In this document: piece after piece, positions 1 to 19,984 of the stretch
How positions within the stretch are numbered: the first letter of the stretch is position 1
Layout: the number at the start of each line of letters is the position of its first letter
Program-made: the position numbers and the translations under genes
Notes under the pieces: model-generated
Seen by the model: the letters and a program-made list of their open reading frames with translations, nothing else
Databases searched by the model: none
Told to the model about the DNA's origin: nothing
Assembly: GCA_048882385.1 (NCBI GenBank)
Contig: JBHLRQ010000039.1
Coordinates: forward strand, 2,687 to 22,670
Origin: Candidatus Thorarchaeota archaeon
Lineage (GTDB): Archaea > Asgardarchaeota > Thorarchaeia > Thorarchaeales > Thorarchaeaceae
Length of the DNA: 19,984 nucleotides
Direction of reading: 5' to 3'

Positions 1-2087
1 ATTCCAGCATCGCTCATTGCGAGAGCCAGAGCATCGTTGACACCATCTCCGGTCATAGCTACAACACGTTTCTGGTCCTGGTATCTCTCAACAATCACCT
101 GTTTGTGATCAGGATTTACCCTCGCGAACACATTGGTTCTAGCAAAATCATCATCACTGATTGATTCAATCTCAGTGCCCTCAACGGCGATTGAGTTCTC
201 TCCGAAGATTCCAAGATCCTGTGCAATTGTCTTGGCTGTAGCAGAAGCATCGCCAGTAATCATTATCACATTGATTCCTGCGCTGTGGCAATCTTTTACA
301 GCCTCTCGAACACCTTCTCGCGGGGGATCAACAATACAAGCGAATCCGAGGTAAATGAGGTTTTGCTCTGTCTTCTCACGAGCATCCTTACCTGTGGGTA
401 CACTATCTAAATGACGATAAGCAAGGGATATCACACGGTATCCCTTAGCGGCAAATTCAGTAGTCATTGTTCTTACTCGATTTACAACATCAGTGGTTAT
501 TTTCGTGGGTGTGTCCTTCCCGTCAACAAATGCGCATTTTGGTAATAGAACCTCGGTTGCACCCTTGCTAAATGCAACGAATTTCTTTCCATCTTTGCAT
601 ATTTTTGACATCCGTTTCAGTTCTGATTCAAACGGGAACTCGTGCACAATCTCATACTTCTTCAGTATTGCATCTTCATCCAAGCCACTCTTTCTGAAAA
701 GAGTCAAGAGTGCGGCATCAGTTGGGTCACCCAATGGTCTCCAGATTGTACCCTGATCAGGAAGTTCTTCCTTGACAATCTCTGAGTCATTGTTTATACC
801 TCCGCACACAACGAGACGGTAGAGACCTTTCCAAGAAAATATGTCCTTTACTTCATCTTCTTCAACCTTGAGAGTAACAACATCGTCTACACCTTTCAAC
901 AAGTAAATGCCACCGACTGGGTCATAGCCATCACCTTTCACAGAATACAGATTATGCGTGTCCCAACAATACTTGACAGTCATTTGATTTCTTGTCATAG
1001 TTCCAGTCTTGTCACTACAGATCACACTGACTCGTCCAAGACTCTCAACTGCAGATAAATCGCGGATGATGACTCCCTTCTTTGCCATCGCGAGAACTCC
1101 AGTGAGGAGGACAATGGTTGTCAATAGAGGGATGTTGATGGGCATTATTGTCATAGCGCGAGTAATTCCTTCTTGAGCACGTGCCATTATGAAATCAATA
1201 CTAAGATCAACCACTCCAGTTCCATTTACAATTGGATAGAGGAACACTTGCCAAATGAGTGACACAGCCATGAGAACGATGGCAGCAATTCCTAGGTATT
1301 TCGCTAGCAGATTGGTTTTCCTTCGAAGAGGTATATCTCCTGTGTTTAACTCTCCCAGAGTTCCTTGAATCTTTCCGATCTCTGTTCGACCTCCGGTGGC
1401 AGTGGCAACAACAGTAGCCATTCCCGTCGACACATAGGAACCGAAGAAAACCATGTTTCGCATGTCAGTTAGAGGTGCATCAGCATGGACAGTAGATGCA
1501 CTATCCTTCATTGCAGGTACACTCTCACCGGTCATTGAGGCTTCATCAGTTGTGAGATTAGAACAAGTAATTATTCTCGCATCTACAGGAATCCGATCAC
1601 CCTGTTCGAGAATTACCACATCCCCAGGAACCATTCCCATTGGCGGGATGCTCTTCTCATTTCCGTCTCTAATAACACGGGCTTCGCCAGCAGATAACTG
1701 TTCTAGAGCTTCCAATTTCTTTTGAGCGCGATATTGTTGAACAATTGCTACTAACGCATTTACTGCTACCACTCCAAGCCACACAAGTGCTTGAGCCATT
1801 TCGTTCTCATCTGATGGAAATAAGTAAGCGATGAAGATCAAGGCAAAAGAGCTGATGATGTATATAGTGATTAACCAGTTTAGAATTGGGGCGATGTAAA
1901 CCTTCCAAAAGGGTCCACGAACTTTGGGGATGGTGTTTTCACCGTGTTTACTGAGTCTCGATTTTACTTCATCACTGGACAGACCTCTCTTTGGGTCAAC
2001 CTGAAGCGCCCCGTAGACTTCATCGAGAGGTATAGAATGATACGGTCGAACGGAATTATCCTGTGTGATGGCGTCTTCTTCCGACAA
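1..2087 (-). CDS. P-type ATPase with a P2-like (Ca2+/cation-ATPase) scaffold and an atypical M4 motif; 3' end truncated by the window edge
   Basis: Not in the ORF track; translated by hand. TTG start at 2087 with GAGGT upstream (2095-2099). Motifs in one frame: N-terminal GLSSDEVKSRLSKHGEN, actuator DEASMTGES, phosphorylation site CSDKTGT (DKTGT 999-1013), EFPFESELKRMS, FSKGATE, VDPPR, MITGD, FARVNPDHK and AMTGDGVND near the window start. M4 reads MPINIP (PINIP 1128-1142). Confidence 0.95.
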   Translation of the reverse strand, partial: MSEEDAITQDNSVRPYHSIPLDEVYGALQVDPKRGLSSDEVKSRLSKHGENTIPKVRGPFWKVYIAPILNWLITIYIISSFALIFIAYLFPSDENEMAQALVWLGVVAVNALVAIVQQYRAQKKLEALEQLSAGEARVIRDGNEKSIPPMGMVPGDVVILEQGDRIPVDARIITCSNLTTDEASMTGESVPAMKDSASTVHADAPLTDMRNMVFFGSYVSTGMATVVATATGGRTEIGKIQGTLGELNTGDIPLRRKTNLLAKYLGIAAIVLMAVSLIWQVFLYPIVNGTGVVDLSIDFIMARAQEGITRAMTIMPINIPLLTTIVLLTGVLAMAKKGVIIRDLSAVESLGRVSVICSDKTGTMTRNQMTVKYCWDTHNLYSVKGDGYDPVGGIYLLKGVDDVVTLKVEEDEVKDIFSWKGLYRLVVCGGINNDSEIVKEELPDQGTIWRPLGDPTDAALLTLFRKSGLDEDAILKKYEIVHEFPFESELKRMSKICKDGKKFVAFSKGATEVLLPKCAFVDGKDTPTKITTDVVNRVRTMTTEFAAKGYRVISLAYRHLDSVPTGKDAREKTEQNLIYLGFACIVDPPREGVREAVKDCHSAGINVIMITGDASATAKTIAQDLGIFGENSIAVEGTEIESISDDDFARTNVFARVNPDHKQVIVERYQDQKRVVAMTGDGVNDALALAMSDAG

Positions 2088-2298: not shown

Positions 2299-2307
2299 GT
2301 GCAGATT

Positions 2308-4269
2308 ATGGATTATTATTGGCAAACCACCTCCTCTAAAGAGTCAAAAACTGATGGGACCAAGATTATTGCAGCGATCATCATTTTGATGATTGTAATA
2401 TCCACAGGTCTTGTCTTTGTTTTTCAAGTTGGACCATTTGGAAGAAGTGGAAATAATAGCCCAGTCAGAGTCGCGGTATTGGATTCTGGGATCAACCAAG
2501 ACTTCACATTACAAGGAAGAGTTGTAGCTGAGAAGAGTTTCATAGAAACTCAATACGGCTACGATGTAGCGGATTTGGCAGTTACTGATTCAGAACCAGA
2601 GAATGTTCCTCATGGCACATTGGTTGCCAAGCTAGTAGCTGAAACCTATAATGCACTGATTGTCAATGGAAAGGTCTTGAGTTCAGATGGAACTGCGACT
2701 TCAATAGCTCTAGTAGAAGCCATTTACTGGGCTGTAGAACAGAACTGTAGTGTCATCTCAATGAGCCTTGGTGCGGACCCAGTCTTTGGAGATCCCCTTG
2801 AAGCTGCTGTCGATTGGGCGTTCTCACAAGGCGTTGTTGTTGTTTCATCAGCAGGAAACGAAGGTGAAGGAGGACTGATTGGGACAAGCATCTCTTCACC
2901 AAGTTTGTATGATCGCTGTATTTCTGTAGCAGCTGTATACGAAAATGGCGAACCCACAGAGTTTTCATCAACTGGTCCAACATATGAGAGATTCATGAAG
3001 CCAGACATCACTGCAAATGGATGGGCAACTGATTCAGGAGGGCGTTACTATGGAACCAGTTTCGCATCACCAAGAGTTGCAGGAGCAGCTGCAGATCTCA
3101 TAGGATACTGCGAAGCCAACAATATCACTTACACTGCTGGAACAATCATAACTGCTCTCCTTAAGGGAGCTACTCCAATGGATGAGTATCCAAGCTATGT
3201 TGTCGGTACAGGGTTGCTTAATGTTCAAAACTCACTGAATCTTATAATCGAAAATTCGGAAGAGGGCGAGCTTCCAGCAGTCAGCTTGGCGTTTCCAAGC
3301 ACTCTACCGCTGGATTATGAGAGAATATTCTTGGGCGATACCTATGTATTCTACATTCGTCTGTTCACATCAGGATACACGACATTTGATGTCAGCGTTG
3401 ATAGTGCTACACCAGAGATTTTTGATATTCCTTCAACCCTGGAGGTGAATCAGACTCTTCTATTTCCTCTAACTATAGACATACCTAGTACTGGGTTATC
3501 TGTTGTTAGTGCTACAATAGAATTTTCTTCATCTGATTTTGGCGACACTGAACTTCAGATGTCTTTTGATGTTGCAGATCCAATCGCGAGAGTAGCATTT
3601 GATATTAGTCATTCAACATGGTCAATTGATTCATACTATGGCCAGTTTCGTGAGTTCTACAAAGATTTGGCTGCTAATGATATCTCTGTAACTGAAATAC
3701 GAAACAGTTCTGCAACAACACCATCGTTCCTGCAGGAATTCGACTCTGTTGTTATTCTAGATCCATGTGTCTATGATTTGAATGAAACCAATCCATATGA
3801 TCCAACCTACTACTCGTTGCCCTTCTCAAACAATGAAAAACAAGCATATCAGGACTACTTTGATTCAGGCGGGGGCATTTTCCTTGTGGGTCTTTCTTCT
3901 GAAACAACAAATGTCACTCAAGTAAACGATTTTCTCAGTTGGTCTGGATTCTCACTCACAAATTTGGAAGTGCCCTCTGGCTCTAGTCCGGAGCTCGTTG
4001 ACAATCTCGACTCACATATCATCACGTCAGGAGTGTCAGGATTTCATTACTTAGGAGCAACAATCCAAATACCTACAGACGGTCATCGTCTAGCAAGATA
4101 TGGAGGAATGCCAATTTTGGGTTACAAGGAAGGTGGAGGTGGAGGAAAGATTGTTGTCACCGGAAGTAACTACTTTGTGGATAACTATGCTTTCTTGGGA
4201 GAGTATGGAGCAGGTGACGATGCTTTAATTGCACTTCGAATTGTGGCATGGACAGCTGGAGTGTTGTAA
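2308..4269 (+). CDS. Membrane-anchored S8 (subtilisin-family) serine protease, SKI-1/S1P-like, with a C-terminal alpha/beta (DUF4350/GATase-like) domain
   Basis: Catalytic motifs VRVAVLDSG (Asp), HGTLVA (His), SAGNEG (oxyanion Asn) and GTSFASPRVAGA (Ser codon 3058-3060). N-terminal hydrophobic helix IIAAIIILMIVISTGLVFVF. The track starts at GTG 2299; ATG 2308, preceded by GGTG, is the likelier start. Confidence 0.92.
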   Translation: MDYYWQTTSSKESKTDGTKIIAAIIILMIVISTGLVFVFQVGPFGRSGNNSPVRVAVLDSGINQDFTLQGRVVAEKSFIETQYGYDVADLAVTDSEPENVPHGTLVAKLVAETYNALIVNGKVLSSDGTATSIALVEAIYWAVEQNCSVISMSLGADPVFGDPLEAAVDWAFSQGVVVVSSAGNEGEGGLIGTSISSPSLYDRCISVAAVYENGEPTEFSSTGPTYERFMKPDITANGWATDSGGRYYGTSFASPRVAGAAADLIGYCEANNITYTAGTIITALLKGATPMDEYPSYVVGTGLLNVQNSLNLIIENSEEGELPAVSLAFPSTLPLDYERIFLGDTYVFYIRLFTSGYTTFDVSVDSATPEIFDIPSTLEVNQTLLFPLTIDIPSTGLSVVSATIEFSSSDFGDTELQMSFDVADPIARVAFDISHSTWSIDSYYGQFREFYKDLAANDISVTEIRNSSATTPSFLQEFDSVVILDPCVYDLNETNPYDPTYYSLPFSNNEKQAYQDYFDSGGGIFLVGLSSETTNVTQVNDFLSWSGFSLTNLEVPSGSSPELVDNLDSHIITSGVSGFHYLGATIQIPTDGHRLARYGGMPILGYKEGGGGGKIVVTGSNYFVDNYAFLGEYGAGDDALIALRIVAWTAGVL

Positions 4270-4501: not shown

Positions 4502-5743
4502 TTGTCAAGAGCCACGAAAGCGTCCTACTCTGTGTTAATTGCAGTAACGCTGGCGCATTTCTTGAACCATGTATACACTGGAGCGCTGTCCCCTTTCCTT
4601 CCACTCATCCAAGCTGAACTATTCCTAAATTATACCCAAGTAGGAATAATAACTAGTGCGGCAGTCGTAGCAATGACAATATCTCACTTTATAGTTGGCT
4701 ATCTTGGTGACAGAGGAGCTCGCTGGCGGGATACGTTCATCGCGAGTAGTATTCTGGCAAGTGCTTTGACAATGATACTCACGAGCTATTCTCCTGGGTT
4801 CGTGGTCCTTGCTGTGTTTCAGCTCTTCCTAGGGATTGGAGCGTCAGGATATCATCCCAGTGTCTTCCCAGCTCTTGCAGAGAAGTTTCCACAGAAGGAC
4901 TTAGCCAAGGCGACAGGAATACAAGCCATGGGTGGACTCATTGGCATGGCAGTAATTCCATTTCTTGGTGTGACTCTCCTAATTTGGCTTGGTGGATGGA
5001 GACCTTCACTGATTGCTCTGGGACTGATGGGTTTCATCATCTTCGTACCTTTCATCCTTCTAATGAGGAAGTCCAACATTGGATATACAGAGGGATTCAT
5101 CAACAAAGAAGACGAGTGTGAAGGTGCAGACGGATGGACTAGGAATTACTACCTTGGTCTATTATTAATGGGTCTTAGAGGAATGTCATTCAGATGTACA
5201 TCACTCCTGATGCCGCTTTACCTCGTTGAAACATATCCGGTTGATCTGGTATGGGCGGGATATCTTACAACAATAATGCTGAGTGCTGGGCTAGTCGGAG
5301 AGATAGCAGCATCAATTCTCTCAGACAGGATGCACAAAAGAGTACTATTCCTTATCCTATCAACTGGATTTGTTACTCCTGCATTACTTCTACTAAATTA
5401 TTCGCTAAGTGAAGGTGTATTGATACTGATGCTGATAGTCATTGGATTCTTCTTCTATCTAGGTGTACCAGCTAACACAGCATTTCTGACAGAAGTGAGT
5501 CCAAAAGAGTCCAGAGGGCTTGCATTTGGACTGTTGTTCTCAGTAGGCGCAATCCCTGGAGCTGTATCACCAATCATTTTCGGAATCATTGGTGACAATT
5601 ATGGACTACCTGCATCAATCCTGTTTCTCGTTATAACAACGATATTAGCAACAATCGTTGCACTATTCTTGAAGGATGTAAAACCAAACAACCGATTTGT
5701 AGAAGCAAAGCAATTTCTGGATGGCCCCCATAGTTTGGAATAG
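4502..5743 (+). CDS. Major facilitator superfamily transporter (Fsr-like)
   Basis: 413 aa with about 12 hydrophobic segments in two halves. Motif-A-like GYLGDRG and SILSDRMHKR. N-terminal LAHFLNHVY and GYHP resemble Fsr-type MFS proteins. TTG start. Confidence 0.9.
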   Translation: MSRATKASYSVLIAVTLAHFLNHVYTGALSPFLPLIQAELFLNYTQVGIITSAAVVAMTISHFIVGYLGDRGARWRDTFIASSILASALTMILTSYSPGFVVLAVFQLFLGIGASGYHPSVFPALAEKFPQKDLAKATGIQAMGGLIGMAVIPFLGVTLLIWLGGWRPSLIALGLMGFIIFVPFILLMRKSNIGYTEGFINKEDECEGADGWTRNYYLGLLLMGLRGMSFRCTSLLMPLYLVETYPVDLVWAGYLTTIMLSAGLVGEIAASILSDRMHKRVLFLILSTGFVTPALLLLNYSLSEGVLILMLIVIGFFFYLGVPANTAFLTEVSPKESRGLAFGLLFSVGAIPGAVSPIIFGIIGDNYGLPASILFLVITTILATIVALFLKDVKPNNRFVEAKQFLDGPHSLE

Positions 5744-5798: not shown

Positions 5799-6662
5799 AT
5801 GTTCGACTATCATATACATCCAAATTACTCAATTGATGCAGAAGGTGAAATTGATGAATTTTGTAGATCAGCCATTGAGGTCGGACTGAAAGAGATAGCT
5901 TTCACCACTCATTTTGATACTGATCGTGTAGCAGACGACTGTTATGTCAATGTCAAAGGAAAGAGAGTGGACATTGCATCGAGTGTTTGGTTTGAAGAGT
6001 ATGAGTCTGAGATTAGAAATGCTGGTGAGAAGTTTTCTGACTCTGGCTTGGAGGTTTTACTAGGAGTTGAGATAGACTGTTTCCCGGGGGTTGAGTCAAA
6101 TCTCCCGGAGAAGTTCTACTCTACTGATTTCGATTTAGTCCTTGGTTCAGTTCATCTCATAGATCACATAGCCATTTCGTCAGGAGGAAGAGCAGAGGAG
6201 GCAATGAGGAAATACTCATTGGAGGAGATAGGAGAGAAGTATTTCACAGTAATGCTGGATTCGATTGATTTGGGTATTTTTGATGTTCTTGCTCACATCG
6301 ACCTCTACCGTAGATTTGGTGAAGCGTATTATGGCAAGGCAATCAACAATTTATGGAAGCCATACTTGAAAGAATTAGCTGGCAAAATGAACAGAAAGGG
6401 AGTGGGTTTTGAGATTAACACGTCTTCATTGCGGAGAGGTATGACGCAACCAATGCCAAACGAACAAATTGTCAAAGCACTGAAACGAGAAGGCGTTGAA
6501 ACTGTGACCATTGGTTCAGATGCTCACGCACCCAGCGAAGTAGGGCAGGGAATAGAGAGAGCTCTGAAGATTGTCAAAGATGCAGGTTTCAAAGGACCTT
6601 CAACATATAGAAAGAGAGTCCCATCAATATGGAGCCTTTCGAATCTGCAGAAACAGAATTAA
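5799..6662 (+). CDS. PHP-domain phosphoesterase, histidinol-phosphatase (HisJ/HisK) family
   Basis: Metal-binding PHP motifs DYHIHPNYS, FTTH, GVEID, GSVH, LAHIDL, EINTSSLR and TIGSDAH. The actual substrate is uncertain because no other his genes are adjacent. Confidence 0.85.
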   Translation: MFDYHIHPNYSIDAEGEIDEFCRSAIEVGLKEIAFTTHFDTDRVADDCYVNVKGKRVDIASSVWFEEYESEIRNAGEKFSDSGLEVLLGVEIDCFPGVESNLPEKFYSTDFDLVLGSVHLIDHIAISSGGRAEEAMRKYSLEEIGEKYFTVMLDSIDLGIFDVLAHIDLYRRFGEAYYGKAINNLWKPYLKELAGKMNRKGVGFEINTSSLRRGMTQPMPNEQIVKALKREGVETVTIGSDAHAPSEVGQGIERALKIVKDAGFKGPSTYRKRVPSIWSLSNLQKQN

Positions 6663-16138: not shown

Positions 16139-19100
16139 CTACTCATCAACTTCTTGGAACGATTCAACTAAGCTTATCAATTCACTCTTAGTAAGCCTCT
16201 TGAGTTCAGATGGAGAAGTAGAGACCTTTATGTCATCAGGAATGAGATCGAGAAGTTCCTTTTTGGTCAACTTGGACAGATCTACAACTGGCTCGGGTTC
16301 GATGAACTCCTCAGGAATGTAATCTTCGACCACAGGTTCAATTTCTGGTTCGACAGGCTCCTCGATCAATTCATCAACTTCTGCTTCCTCAGCCACCTCT
16401 GGTTCAGTTTCGACGATTTCCTCAGAAATTTGATCATCTGGCTCGAGCATTTCAGGTTCTTCGACCTCGACTTCGATCTCCGGTTCAATTGTTGTTTCAT
16501 CTAGTATTTCAGATTCGGTTTCTATTTCGAATTCCTCGACCTCAGTAAGCTCTTCCTCCATAGGAGGTAATTCGACCTCTTCAGGTTCAAGTTCAACAGG
16601 TTCTTCAACCATAGCTGATTCCACTTCTGTATCCTCAACCTCAGCTTCAACAGATACCTCAGGCTCTGAAGGTTCAATTTTCTCAGGTTCTACCTCTGGT
16701 TCAGGAATTGGTTCTTCCTCGGTTTCAACAGAAAATGGTTCTTCAGGAGGCACTTCTTCGGCAACTTCTGGCATTCCAGGAACACTGGTATCAATCTCAC
16801 TTACATCAACAGATACGACACCGCGTCTTCTTCGAGAAACAATAATTGCAGCTCCTATGAGTGCGATACCTGCCCCTCCACCAACAAGCATTAGGGTCAT
16901 TGTGTCTGGCACAAATCCAGGAACTCCTACCCATTCGATTTCAGCGCTCAGACCATCTGTGTTCACAGTAGTTACTCCATGAGTATTTCCAGACACACTA
17001 TCTAGAGTAAACGTGTAGTTACCAGCCACAGTCTGGCCTACAGATGCTGTCCAATATCCTGCAGAGTTGTATGTCATTGCGATTGGACCATTGTTCAGAT
17101 AGACAGTACCATCTATGACAGGAGTGCTATCGAACTCATAGACAAGTGTAACACGAATTTCAACTGACACACCAGTATCAACCGAGGGAGTCGTGGTTGT
17201 GATTGAAGTTAGTTTGACTCTGTCCCAGATAACAGTTGCATCAGCAGAAGTCTGAATGAATTGGTCAATCTCACCAAGTGATGCAGAAGTGATGCTGTAT
17301 GTAACACTACCTACAGAGGATTGTGATACTGAAGCAGTGTAGACACCGCCAGATGGAATGCAGACAATGTCGCCTGTCATAGATACAACTATTCCAGTCA
17401 GAATGTCAACTCCAGCATTCTCAAGACGAGCACTCCATTGGATCTCTGCTGAAGAACCGATATTGACTCTTCCATCATCAACAGACACCGAATAGAACTC
17501 AATTCTATCCCAGTATACTGTGACAGCATTACTGTCCATGTTGTATTCACTAATTCCATGGAGTGTTGCATCGCAGGATGTGAGATCGTCAAAGTCGATA
17601 TCTGAGTATGAACCTATAGTTACTAAGACCTCCCATATTCCAGATCCTGCATGAGTTAATGAGTACCCTGCGATGTCAAATGCACCTGCAAGTACTGGTG
17701 TATTATCGAACTCATACTCAAGCTCAACTGTGATCATTGCGTTATCACCGGGGTCATGATAACGTTCATCCACTGTAACTGATACTACAAGAACTCTGTC
17801 CCAGATACAGAATGTAGCATCATTGGTCTGGATTTCGGATATTCCATGAGTGTCTCCAGACACTGCTGATACTGTGTACCATTGAATCTGAGGTGATGCA
17901 TATTGGTAGTTTGTGTTGTTCAGAGTGAAGCTTCCGTCAAACACTGTACTATCGAATGCGTAGACTGCACTCACAATGATGCCTGTTGCATTTGTACCAA
18001 CATTGACCCTCTGGTCAGAGGGATTAATGATACTGATAATCAACGCATCCCAAATCACCCGTTGAGCAGAAGTTGTTGCAAACCACTCAGTCAGGCCATA
18101 GGTTGACTCACTTGCAGAAGCTACATCAAACCATGCTGATGAAGGACTGACTGAAGTTTCTTGCCATCTCCAATAGAGACCACCAGCATACCAAATGAGA
18201 GTTCTTGAACCATTGAGATCTAGTATCAATCCACTCTGGATTGGAGTATTGTCATACTCGTATCTGGCTCTCCACCAAACGTCGCAATCGGAGTTGATAT
18301 TGATTCGCCCATCAACTACACCAGCCTCATAGATCTCTATCCTGTCAGTGATGAAAGTATCATTCAGACTTGTCGTGTGGTACAGGTCAGTTCCTCCAAA
18401 GCCACTTCCTTCAGTAACAACCTTGAATGTGTAATTGTTTAATCCAGTTGTTGCGGGAGAACCAATACTTGAGATACTGAAACTACCTGCACTTAGATCT
18501 CCACTCCAAGCTTCAACACCATCCCGTACAACCCAGACATCCGTTTCGTTTGCTAGAGGACTATGACTTGAACCATAATACGTGACGGAACCACTACCAA
18601 TCAAGTCTGAAGTGTTGATATTTCCACGGTCATCAGACAGATATGGTGGAGTGGAGTAGTCAAGGCGAGTTTCTACGTTCCAATTGGACTCATAGAAATC
18701 TGAATCATTATCAGTTCCATCAGTTACAAATTGTTGGATGTCAATATTGATGACATATGGGTGGTCCCAGCCGATCTTGATATACCAGGTCACCGTCAGA
18801 GTATCTCCAACACTAACAGCATTTGACATCGCCCCAATCGTGACAACTGAACCACCAAACTCAACTGAAAACGTGTCTGTTGCTCTTGTGTATCGAATTG
18901 TCCAATATAGAATTGGGAAATCATCAGGGAAGAGCGATAACTGAACATAACTGATGTCTGCGTATCCATCAGGATCACTCACAGAAGTGGTGACAATGTA
19001 GTAACGATAACGTGCGTATAGAAAGTCTGTGTCATCACCGTTTGTCAACACTGGACCAGAATCGTTGACAGGATTCTCATTTGGAGCTAGTGACCAGGTC

Positions 19101-19984
19101 ACTTGTTGCGTGTTCGTTGTGAATGAAGTGATACCGTATGTGGATTCTGATGTCACCACAAATACAGTGTAGGTGTATGAGTTGTCAGAGTTTGTATCAA
19201 CAAATGATGACTTGTTTGCATCAGTAAATGAGTGCCACCAAGTCCCATTTCTATAGACCACAATCTGGTAGGATGTGCATGCTGTATCGTCGTAGTCAAA
19301 GAGGACTGCAAGAGTGAAGTTTGCTTGAATTCCATTAAGTGGAGTAGAATCATCAACACCAATCGTGATAACTAGTTGATCCCATATCATGTAGGTTTCA
19401 TCATTGGAACTTATTATTGTGATACCATAAGTATCGCCTGATGCACTGTCGACGGTGTATCCCCATTTAACAACAGTTCCATCTCCATCAAAATCTGTTT
19501 GATTAAGTGTGAGTACACCATCAAATACTGCGCCATCATAATCGTAGACTGCACTCAAAACGATGCCTGATGCATTGGCATTGATGCCTTGTCTGTTGTC
19601 TGTGGGACCAGTTACGCTGATAGTAAGTGAGTCCCAGATCATGAAGGTCTCATCGTTCGAACTTATTGAAGTTATACCAAAAGAGCCTCCAGAAACACCT
19701 AGAACAGTGTAGCCCCACTTGATGGCTGTTCCATCTCCATCAAAGTCAGTATTGTTCAAGGTGAAGGTTCCATCAAACACTGAACCATCATAGTCATAGA
19801 CTGCTGACACGATGATACCTGAAGCATTGGCATTCAAGTTCTGCCTGTTGTCCGTTGGATCAGTGATGGTAATAGTCACTGAATCCCAGATCATGTAAGT
19901 GACATCATTCGAACTTATGGCGGTTATATCGAAGGTGTCTCCAGAAGCGTCAAGAACGGTGTATCCCCACCTGACAGCTGTCCC
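16139..19984 (-). CDS. Very large cell-surface protein (5' end beyond the window): tandem beta-rich repeats, a single TM helix, an acidic cytoplasmic tail and a terminal HEH-like motif
   Basis: The frame stays open upstream of the track's Met at 19894 to the window edge (GTAVRWGYTVLDASGDTFDITAISSNDVTY-MIWD), so the protein is at least 1281 aa. TM LMLVGGGAGIALIGAAIIVS (about 16835-16894) is followed by RRRR (16823-16834). Many N-X-S/T sequons precede the TM. Confidence 0.9.
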   Translation of the reverse strand, partial: GTAVRWGYTVLDASGDTFDITAISSNDVTYMIWDSVTITITDPTDNRQNLNANASGIIVSAVYDYDGSVFDGTFTLNNTDFDGDGTAIKWGYTVLGVSGGSFGITSISSNDETFMIWDSLTISVTGPTDNRQGINANASGIVLSAVYDYDGAVFDGVLTLNQTDFDGDGTVVKWGYTVDSASGDTYGITIISSNDETYMIWDQLVITIGVDDSTPLNGIQANFTLAVLFDYDDTACTSYQIVVYRNGTWWHSFTDANKSSFVDTNSDNSYTYTVFVVTSESTYGITSFTTNTQQVTWSLAPNENPVNDSGPVLTNGDDTDFLYARYRYYIVTTSVSDPDGYADISYVQLSLFPDDFPILYWTIRYTRATDTFSVEFGGSVVTIGAMSNAVSVGDTLTVTWYIKIGWDHPYVINIDIQQFVTDGTDNDSDFYESNWNVETRLDYSTPPYLSDDRGNINTSDLIGSGSVTYYGSSHSPLANETDVWVVRDGVEAWSGDLSAGSFSISSIGSPATTGLNNYTFKVVTEGSGFGGTDLYHTTSLNDTFITDRIEIYEAGVVDGRININSDCDVWWRARYEYDNTPIQSGLILDLNGSRTLIWYAGGLYWRWQETSVSPSSAWFDVASASESTYGLTEWFATTSAQRVIWDALIISIINPSDQRVNVGTNATGIIVSAVYAFDSTVFDGSFTLNNTNYQYASPQIQWYTVSAVSGDTHGISEIQTNDATFCIWDRVLVVSVTVDERYHDPGDNAMITVELEYEFDNTPVLAGAFDIAGYSLTHAGSGIWEVLVTIGSYSDIDFDDLTSCDATLHGISEYNMDSNAVTVYWDRIEFYSVSVDDGRVNIGSSAEIQWSARLENAGVDILTGIVVSMTGDIVCIPSGGVYTASVSQSSVGSVTYSITSASLGEIDQFIQTSADATVIWDRVKLTSITTTTPSVDTGVSVEIRVTLVYEFDSTPVIDGTVYLNNGPIAMTYNSAGYWTASVGQTVAGNYTFTLDSVSGNTHGVTTVNTDGLSAEIEWVGVPGFVPDTMTLMLVGGGAGIALIGAAIIVSRRRRGVVSVDVSEIDTSVPGMPEVAEEVPPEEPFSVETEEEPIPEPEVEPEKIEPSEPEVSVEAEVEDTEVESAMVEEPVELEPEEVELPPMEEELTEVEEFEIETESEILDETTIEPEIEVEVEEPEMLEPDDQISEEIVETEPEVAEEAEVDELIEEPVEPEIEPVVEDYIPEEFIEPEPVVDLSKLTKKELLDLIPDDIKVSTSPSELKRLTKSELISLVESFQEVDE
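19391..19984 (-). repeat. Intragenic tandem repeat with a 252-bp (84-aa) period: two full copies plus part of a third
   Basis: The Met codons of successive MIWD motifs start at 19894, 19642 and 19390, exactly 252 bp apart. The units share TDNRQ..NANASGI..SAVYDYDG.VFDG..TLN.TDFDGDGT..KWGYTV...SG...GIT.ISSNDET. Confidence 0.92.

Follow-up and report, generated by a model that had tools for sequence, protein, structure and literature searches.

The window analyzed here, a stretch of 19,984 nucleotides from a Candidatus Thorarchaeota archaeon (assembly GCA_048882385.1, contig JBHLRQ010000039.1, below C39), raises the question of what is transported by a P-type ATPase whose fourth membrane helix (M4) reads PINIP in place of the ion-binding PEGLP of calcium pumps. 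The gene lies at the start of the window on the minus strand. As judged from its sequence, it encodes an intact, working E1/E2 P-type ATPase and is a member of a conserved, mostly Asgard sister family of the prokaryotic P2A calcium pumps. The residues of its transport site indicate that its substrate is probably a small cation and not calcium.

The only long open reading frame (ORF) over positions 999-1160 of the window is 3..2087 on the minus strand, with a TTG start at 2087, 695 codons, and an open 3' end. It represents residues 1-695 of a 970-residue protein, an assignment based on the translation, on identity to the protein P0001 (see below), and on the Pfam domains Cation_ATPase_N, E1-E2_ATPase, Cation_ATPase, and Hydrolase; for P0001, PF00689 is on record. 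The translation (...EGITRAMTIMPINIPLLTTIVLLTGVLAMAKKGVIIRDLSAVESLGRVSVICSDKTGT...) contains the M4 stretch GITRAMTIM-PINIP-LLTT, with PINIP at residues 316-320 (1128..1142, minus strand, as for all motifs of this gene). The phosphorylation motif DKTGT follows at residues 359-363 (999..1013), with a spacing of 43 residues from P316 to D359, the same as that between P308 and D351 of SERCA. An earlier interpretation made from the letters of the window without database searches, here called the sequence-only reading, had reported this spacing and an intact set of catalytic motifs, and both are found in the translation: TGES of the actuator domain (residues 186-189; 1521..1532), the nucleotide-binding motif KGA (residues 508-510; 558..566), DPPR (residues 587-590; 318..329), TGD of the P domain (residues 611-613 in MITGDA; 249..257), and GDGVND. 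T611, G612, and D613 are invariant in the family alignment A1. Two further substitutions reported there also hold, namely, QQ for QE in M2 (Q117-Q118, with Q118 in place of the canonical Glu; 1734..1739) and ALAL in GDGVNDALALAM (residues 680-691; 15..50), where L687 takes the place of the usual Pro. The ORF list supplied with the window did miss the gene, for the trivial reason that the gene runs off the window start and open-ended ORFs are unlisted by default.

The window corresponds to C39:2687-22670 and is bounded on both sides by scaffold gaps of 100 N (C39:2587-2686 and 22671-22770). The ATPase gene enters the first gap after ...GDGVNDALALAMSDAG and picks up again with M8-M10 at C39:2586-2200, outside the window. 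About 146 codons are hidden by the gap, so that the assembly lacks M5 to M7 of this enzyme and the last part of its P domain. P0001, a protein of 970 amino acids from another assembly, is identical over all 695 residues and also over 129 residues past the gap; M5 to M7 are read here from P0001, and M8 is read from both P0001 and C39 past the gap. The interruption by 100 N would fit a Ca2+ pump copy that has degenerated, lost its activity, or been mis-sequenced, but this explanation is barely credible. The gap reflects a scaffolding convention with 19 such runs in the genome (besides 3 runs of 10 N), an identical uninterrupted protein exists, the catalytic motifs are intact, and the signature described below is kept across a deep clade. 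For the stretch from M4 to DKTGT, contigs from two different studies (X3 record 3, positions 673-1292; X6 records 16-18, positions 406-1292) match letter for letter, with zero differing positions, and two public-run contigs extend past the window start. Because these contigs agree and because PINIP is present in all 120 best database homologues (66-100% identity, many of them named Thorarchaeota or Promethearchaeota), the PINIP/DKTGT stretch contains no sequencing error. The homologue search refutes the possibility, raised in the sequence-only reading, of a one-off degeneration or a sequence error.

Residue equivalences for the transport site were derived from HMMER alignments to Listeria LMCA1 and to SERCA1/2, where the chain numbering of SERCA lets N768 and E771 be counted directly. 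I317 and N318 of M4 correspond to E309 and G310 of SERCA, N747 and E750 of M5 to N768 and E771, and V777, T780, and H781 of M6 to N796, T799, and D800, while E875 of M8 corresponds to E908. The Thorarchaeote protein therefore keeps the equivalents of N768, E771, T799, and E908 and has lost those of E309, N796, and D800. In the textbook assignment of ligands to sites I and II of SERCA, E309 caps the bound Ca2+ and D800 bridges both sites. Measured against these roles, the residues predict that calcium site II is abolished, with all side-chain ligands peculiar to it gone, and that the Asp bridging the two sites is replaced by His781. The remaining site-I ligands, Asn and Glu of M5 and Glu of M8, are kept on this alignment, and M4 gains a new Asn. 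As predicted from this composition, the transport site cannot work like that of SERCA, and together with the intact catalytic core this agrees with the earlier proposal of an active ATPase with noncanonical transport. A Lys in M5 of the kind found in P4 flippases is absent in the alignment to SERCA and LMCA1. The Arg noted earlier inside M4 is real (R310) but is not conserved, since position 310 holds Thr in 14, Leu in 13, Ser in 13, and Arg in only 12 of the 72 family members in the tree described below.

The closest relative among solved structures by sequence is LMCA1, a P2A pump of Listeria (PDB 9euq, 6zhf, and 6zhh; E 2.2e-125, 422.9 bits). The Thorarchaeote protein shares ∼35 to 40% identity with prokaryotic P2A pumps, and its domain set, catalytic motifs, and ten-helix layout are those of the LMCA1 type, which forms the sister clade in the tree. 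The differences are concentrated in the membrane: M4 shows Ile for Glu and Asn for Gly as well as an extra residue in its outer part (position 307), and M6 shows V..TH instead of N..ND. Pumps of the LMCA1 type keep site II, whereas the PINIP/His family keeps the site-I residues instead.

The marks of this family comprise P-hydrophobic-N-hydrophobic-[PV] in M4, Glu in M5, His in M6, Glu in M8, and GDGVNDALAL, all of which are present in the Thorarchaeote protein. The M6 His motif is matched in 113 of the 120 best homologues; 7 are without a pattern match, and some of the 120 are partial proteins. An orthologue occurs in 24 of 24 genomes of the same genus, mostly at 71-87% identity, though a few of the best matches are far weaker than this or are partial. 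Copies from other families of the phylum show 42-51% identity and have PINIP, PLNIP, PFNLP, or PITIP together with the M6 His. Among the best 150 of 87,027 cluster representatives (50% identity clusters), 40 carry the family marks; the others show nearly all a PEGLP-type M4 and, where the M6 pattern matched, N..TD.

For the phylogenetic analysis, representatives of 800-1,100 amino acids were combined with family ORFs of at least 900 amino acids from a pattern scan, the paralogues of the Thorarchaeote genome, and Asgard P3A pumps passing TIGR01647. The 222 sequences were thinned at 70% identity to 179, aligned with MAFFT, and analyzed with FastTree (LG+gamma), with the P1B pump of the genome as the root. 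The PINIP/His family forms a single clade of 72 leaves with a support of 1.0 and a stem of 0.37. Its sister group is comprised of 102 PEGLP leaves (support 0.90), and the Asgard P3A pumps fall outside both; this sister relation holds within a sample without named P2B/C/D, P3B, P4, or P5 sequences. The comparison with P1-P5 references suggested earlier is covered for the PEGLP and P3A pumps, from which the family is separate. The position of the M4 Glu is hydrophobic in 72 of 72 family leaves and Glu in 101 of the 102 canonical sisters. Within the family, Asn of M4 is found in 68 leaves, Glu of M5 in all 72, Asn of M5 in 64, and His of M6 in 71, the exception being P0143 (PVSIP, with Phe at the His position). 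Glu of M8 is present in 68 family leaves, compared to Gln in 59 and Glu in 38 of the canonical sisters. The N796 position is never Asn in the family (Phe in 25 leaves, Tyr in 16, Ser in 10, Val in 8, and others). The D800 position is Asp in 97 of the 102 canonical sisters and Glu or Asn in the other 5, and Asp never occurs there in the family; conversely, the M6 His is found in none of the 102 canonical sisters and in none of the 4 P3A sequences of the tree sample. The M2 and ALAL substitutions are family-wide as well, with Gln at position 118 in 66 of 72 members versus Glu in 100 of 102 canonical pumps and Leu at position 687 in 90% of the family versus Pro in 96% of the canonical sequences. 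More family-specific positions are P67 for Gln, I252 for Thr, R884, and the extra residue at position 307. TGE[SA] is kept in 68 of 73 full-length family ORFs. These data support PINIP as the conserved mark of what the sequences indicate is a distinct clade.

Profile searches place the enzyme within the P-type ATPases, with scores below the cut-offs of the NCBIfam subfamily models. The generic model TIGR01494 is passed with 259.8 bits (cut-off 62.3). P0001 scores 451.1 bits with the PMR1-type model TIGR01522 (cut-off 798.3), 405.2 bits with the SERCA-type model TIGR01116 (cut-off 703.4), 318.8 bits with the P3A model TIGR01647 (cut-off 615.5), and 409 and 394 bits with the ENA- and PMCA-type models, both below their cut-offs. 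The P1B model TIGR01525 yields 228 bits against a cut-off of 346.25; the M4-equivalent motif is without Cys, and there is no CPx or SPC. The AF2 model (mean predicted local distance difference test score of 82.8; predicted template modeling score of 0.73) shows an M4 helix broken or unwound at residues 315-318, and its helices agree with hydropathy on ten membrane helices. The best 50 Foldseek matches in the PDB are all P2 pumps, namely, SPCA1, SERCA, LMCA1, and Na,K- or H,K-ATPases, with SERCA1/2 and SPCA1/PMR1 as the best structural matches (template modeling scores of 0.6-0.78). In both fold and catalytic motifs, the enzyme matches P2 pumps of the ten-helix type. ESM Atlas returned generic P-type clusters only.

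The sequence-only reading had described M4 as flippase-like and the enzyme as a possible P2-to-P4 intermediate or new subtype that may move a lipid, an anion, or an organic substrate. If the enzyme worked like a P4 or P5 pump and carried a lipid or a different organic molecule, the Ile would serve as a hydrophobic gate. The P-I-x-[IL] of M4 does resemble the PISL of P4 flippases, in which the M4 Pro is likewise followed by Ile. A hydrophobic residue in place of the Glu is, however, no hallmark of P4 pumps, as Asgard P3A pumps show PVALP or PAALP at this site. The protein has TGES instead of DGET, and its GDGVND and TGD are of the P2 type. P0001 reaches 101.5 bits with the P4 model TIGR01652 (cut-off 431.25), compared to 92 for the canonical PEGLP paralogue of the same genome, 82 for the PEGLI paralogue, and 97-117 for four other family members. 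With the P5 model TIGR01657, it scores 206.7 bits, below the cut-off, against 230, 252, and 237-254, respectively. Because the canonical paralogues score alike, the family is judged from its sequences to have no extra affinity to the P4 or P5 models. The pocket also remains acidic, with two buried Glu residues and the Asn kept and the M5 Lys lacking, and the best 50 fold matches include neither P4 nor P5 structures. One locus, L020, offers a slight point in favor, as an ORF between its two tandem copies weakly matches a VTT/DedA domain (33.6 bits, cut-off 33.9), but no partner gene is conserved across 29 loci. A CDC50-like gene, proposed earlier as a co-occurring partner, is not found beside the ATPase in these 29 loci, an unlinked partner elsewhere in the genome not having been searched for. 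Nothing found points to a lipid or an anion, and transport of a lipid or another organic molecule is very unlikely; from the earlier proposal, the distinct and conserved clade remains, whereas the link to P4 pumps does not.

The other pumps encoded in the same genomes bear on two further explanations. Besides the PINIP pump, the Thorarchaeote genome holds a PEGLP pump, a PEGLI pump, a Cu-type P1B pump, a Cd/Zn-type P1B pump, and one CDF transporter (contigs C19, C67, C6, C64, and C66). The PEGLP paralogue carries the canonical N/E, N/T/D, and E. A P3A pump above the TIGR01647 cut-off was not found in this genome. Elsewhere, 25 of 151 Asgard genomes encode one (706-1,077 bits; several copies in some; loci L171-L176), and 19 of these 25 also hold a member of the family. 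Since canonical and P3A pumps coexist with the family, a plain Ca2+ or H+ role would duplicate other pumps.

A classical hard-cation pump, in which Ca2+, Mg2+, Na+, or K+ would be bound through N747, E750, T780, and E875 while H781 would serve either as an uncharged ligand or in the built-in counter-ion role that Lys or Arg has in other single-site pumps, is improbable but has to be taken seriously. The enzyme is closest to Ca2+ pumps in sequence, profile, and fold, the oxygen ligands of site I are kept, and public annotation names family members generically or as Ca2+-transporting ATPases, though this naming is automatic. Loss of D800 abolishes Ca2+ binding in SERCA, which weighs against this explanation, as does the complete absence of Asp at that position in a family whose canonical sisters nearly always keep it. 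PEGLP and PEGLI pumps are already present in the same genome, and the scores fall far short of the cut-off in every NCBIfam subfamily model.

A proton pump or H+-coupled pump would use E750, H781, and E875 as protonatable carriers, with the hydrophobic M4 residue sealing the site as in P3A enzymes. His and Glu are good proton carriers, the acidic Glu of M2 is changed to Gln, and a hydrophobic residue at the M4 Glu position as well as a single-site logic is common to both groups. The pattern of the P3A pumps is nevertheless the opposite: they keep the M6 Asp and have lost the Glu residues of M5 and M8 (signature T,V | A,N,D | G/A), whereas the family has His in M6. The P3A profile score of 319 bits against 615.5, the position outside the P3A clade, and the coexistence with true P3A pumps in 19 of the 25 genomes that bear them likewise argue against this explanation, which is rather unlikely.

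The favored mechanism is one in which one small cation per cycle would bind in a site-I-like pocket formed by N318, N747, E750, H781, and E875 and would be moved out of the cytoplasm. A divalent transition metal is the leading guess for the substrate. To our knowledge, sites for Ca2+, Mg2+, Na+, and K+ do not use an imidazole ligand. Such a ligand is usual in transporters of Zn2+, Fe2+, Co2+, Ni2+, and sometimes Mn2+, and metal sites of His plus carboxylate are found in the YiiP/ZnT CDF transporters, in ZIPs, and in P1B-4 pumps. It is this His ligand that favors a transition metal, a substrate which, argued by analogy, stays well short of an even chance. The likeness to P1B-4, CDF/YiiP, and ZIP transporters, where His is combined with Glu/Asp and Asn/Gln in a membrane site, is a functional analogy only, as homology does not extend past the P-type core into the membrane domain and the protein lacks CPx, SPC, and a metal-binding domain. 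The explanation as a whole, an E1/E2 P-type ATPase of an Asgard sister family of the P2A pumps with a one-cation His pocket and a divalent transition metal as the likeliest substrate, is put forward tentatively. Somewhat more doubtful is the general form of this proposal, that a family of P2 architecture present in most Asgard archaea converted its calcium site into a single His-containing site and pumps Mn2+, Fe2+, Co2+, Ni2+, or Zn2+.

Several points weigh against a transition metal. Of the five pocket residues, four offer oxygen ligands, so that Ca2+, Mg2+, Na+, or H+ could also occupy a single site-I-like pocket, and His781 could instead serve as a built-in counter-ion. M5 to M7 of the Thorarchaeote gene had to be taken from P0001 because the gap removes them. 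No metal-binding domain or His/Cys-rich tail was noted in the Thorarchaeote protein. The case for Zn2+ in particular is weakened by the presence in this genome of the P1B-2 (Cd/Zn-type) pump (479.6 bits with TIGR01512, cut-off 313.5), the Cu-type P1B pump, and the CDF transporter. Genes for metal uptake lie within ∼4 kb of the ATPase in 4 of 29 loci (ZIP in L018, ZnuA and ABC-3 in L021 and L194, and ABC-3 in L180). These neighbors are few, not adjacent, and lineage bound, and with L021 and L194 forming one synteny block, at most three are independent; the ZIP and ZnuA/ABC-3 genes are weak context for a metal substrate.

To determine the distribution of the family, one genome per species was scanned for P-h-N-h-P followed by 38 residues and DKTGT, and at least 133 stretches matched. 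Among the matches listed, 80 loci comprise 65 from named Asgard lineages (Ca. Harpocratesius and the cultured Promethearchaeum syntrophicum MK-D1 among them), 11 from unclassified archaea, 2 from Nitrososphaeria, 1 from Methanomethylicus, and 1 from an Aerophobetes bacterial metagenome-assembled genome (MAG). Cluster look-ups add Korarchaeota as well as Odin- and Helarchaeota. With the family profile A1, ∼90 of 151 sampled Asgard genomes (∼60%) have a full-length match scoring 1,097 bits or more, a hand count that goes by profile score (best E of 0) and not by the motifs of each match. At E <= 1e-170, the profile is unselective (140 of 151 genomes, with canonical pumps at ∼900 bits); the gap between 1,097 and 914 bits was used instead, the full-length matches of 914 bits or fewer being canonical pumps. 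The Thorarchaeote genome (G000) and G020 carry cut copies of the family gene. Genomes often contain 2-5 paralogues.

The only bacterial record among the matches listed, L052 (NJBP01000013.1, the Candidatus Aerophobetes bacterium MAG), sits on short branches beside L047 of the Promethearchaeia, which suggests mis-binning or a recent transfer.

Tandem pairs of paralogues occur in many Loki-, Hod-, and Hermod-type genomes (L032/L033, L042/L043, L053/L054, L076/L077, L097/L098, L099/L100, L091/L092, L079/L101, L041/L082, and L089/L090; also L020 and L177-L183). Of the 10 pairs checked, at least 9 combine a copy that reads 'RxMNIM-PINLP...ALK' with one that reads 'SA[LM]D[LI][LM]-P[IL]NIP...ALALNM'. 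For the tenth pair, L053/L054, the first-match pattern took another site in L053, whose M4 reads RALNIM-PINLP. A gene of ∼270 amino acids lies between the copies in some pairs, the one in L020 being the weak VTT/DedA match mentioned above.

In the parts of the literature on Asgard P-type ATPases that were consulted, a description of the PINIP/His clade was not found. In the portions seen, PMC7997004 limits its mention of Asgard archaea to a putative Ca2+ ATPase (TC 3.A.3.2.21), the authors of PMC10456885 describe their Asgard search for Spf1 as 'not informative', the word 'Asgard' does not appear in PMC10654040, and PMC7016017 gives no account of the clade. The branch is thus apparently undescribed so far.

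Few transport residues in P2 and P3 pumps are conserved as strongly as the M4 Glu and the M6 Asp, and both are replaced in a deep, well-conserved family that is routinely mis-annotated as a Ca2+-ATPase in the Asgard genomes that hold it. Identification of the substrate would extend a textbook enzyme family by a further class of specificity and would improve models of transport and ion homeostasis for the archaeal relatives of eukaryotes. Should it be a transition metal, ten-helix P2-type pumps would gain a class of substrate new to them, with an origin separate from that of the P1B heavy-metal pumps, and this proposal is experimentally reachable through the homologue of the cultured P. syntrophicum. 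The family offers no route to the origin of the eukaryotic P4 or P5 pumps.

The genomic surroundings of the gene vary between lineages. No gene is conserved beside the ATPase across the 29 loci, which come from many lineages, and synteny is seen within lineages only: a subtilase and ketopantoate hydroxymethyltransferase (PanB) flank the orthologue in Thorarchaeote relatives, and TFIIB with two unknown ORFs accompanies it in Loki-type loci. Molybdopterin-oxidoreductase and tungsten AOR genes near the ATPase in two lineages were judged a probable chance association. At the window locus, the ATPase neighbors are a divergently transcribed subtilase of 656 amino acids (2299-4269, plus strand), an MFS transporter (4502-5743, plus strand), and a PHP-domain protein (5799-6662, plus strand), with PanB downstream past the gap (C39:1241-2098, minus strand). 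An ORF of 1,251 amino acids occupies the far window end (16139-19894, minus strand). In two Thorarchaeote relatives (L192:9925-11907 and L191), a protein of ∼660 amino acids with a weak match to the eukaryotic E3 UFM1-protein ligase domain (PF09743, E 1.5e-10) lies immediately next to the ATPase, between it and PanB; it is absent there in the window locus. At L018:2963-3589 (plus strand) of G029, an ORF of 208 amino acids contains only the HAD hydrolase part of a P-type ATPase, ∼850 bases from a full-length family gene, and may be a gene fragment.

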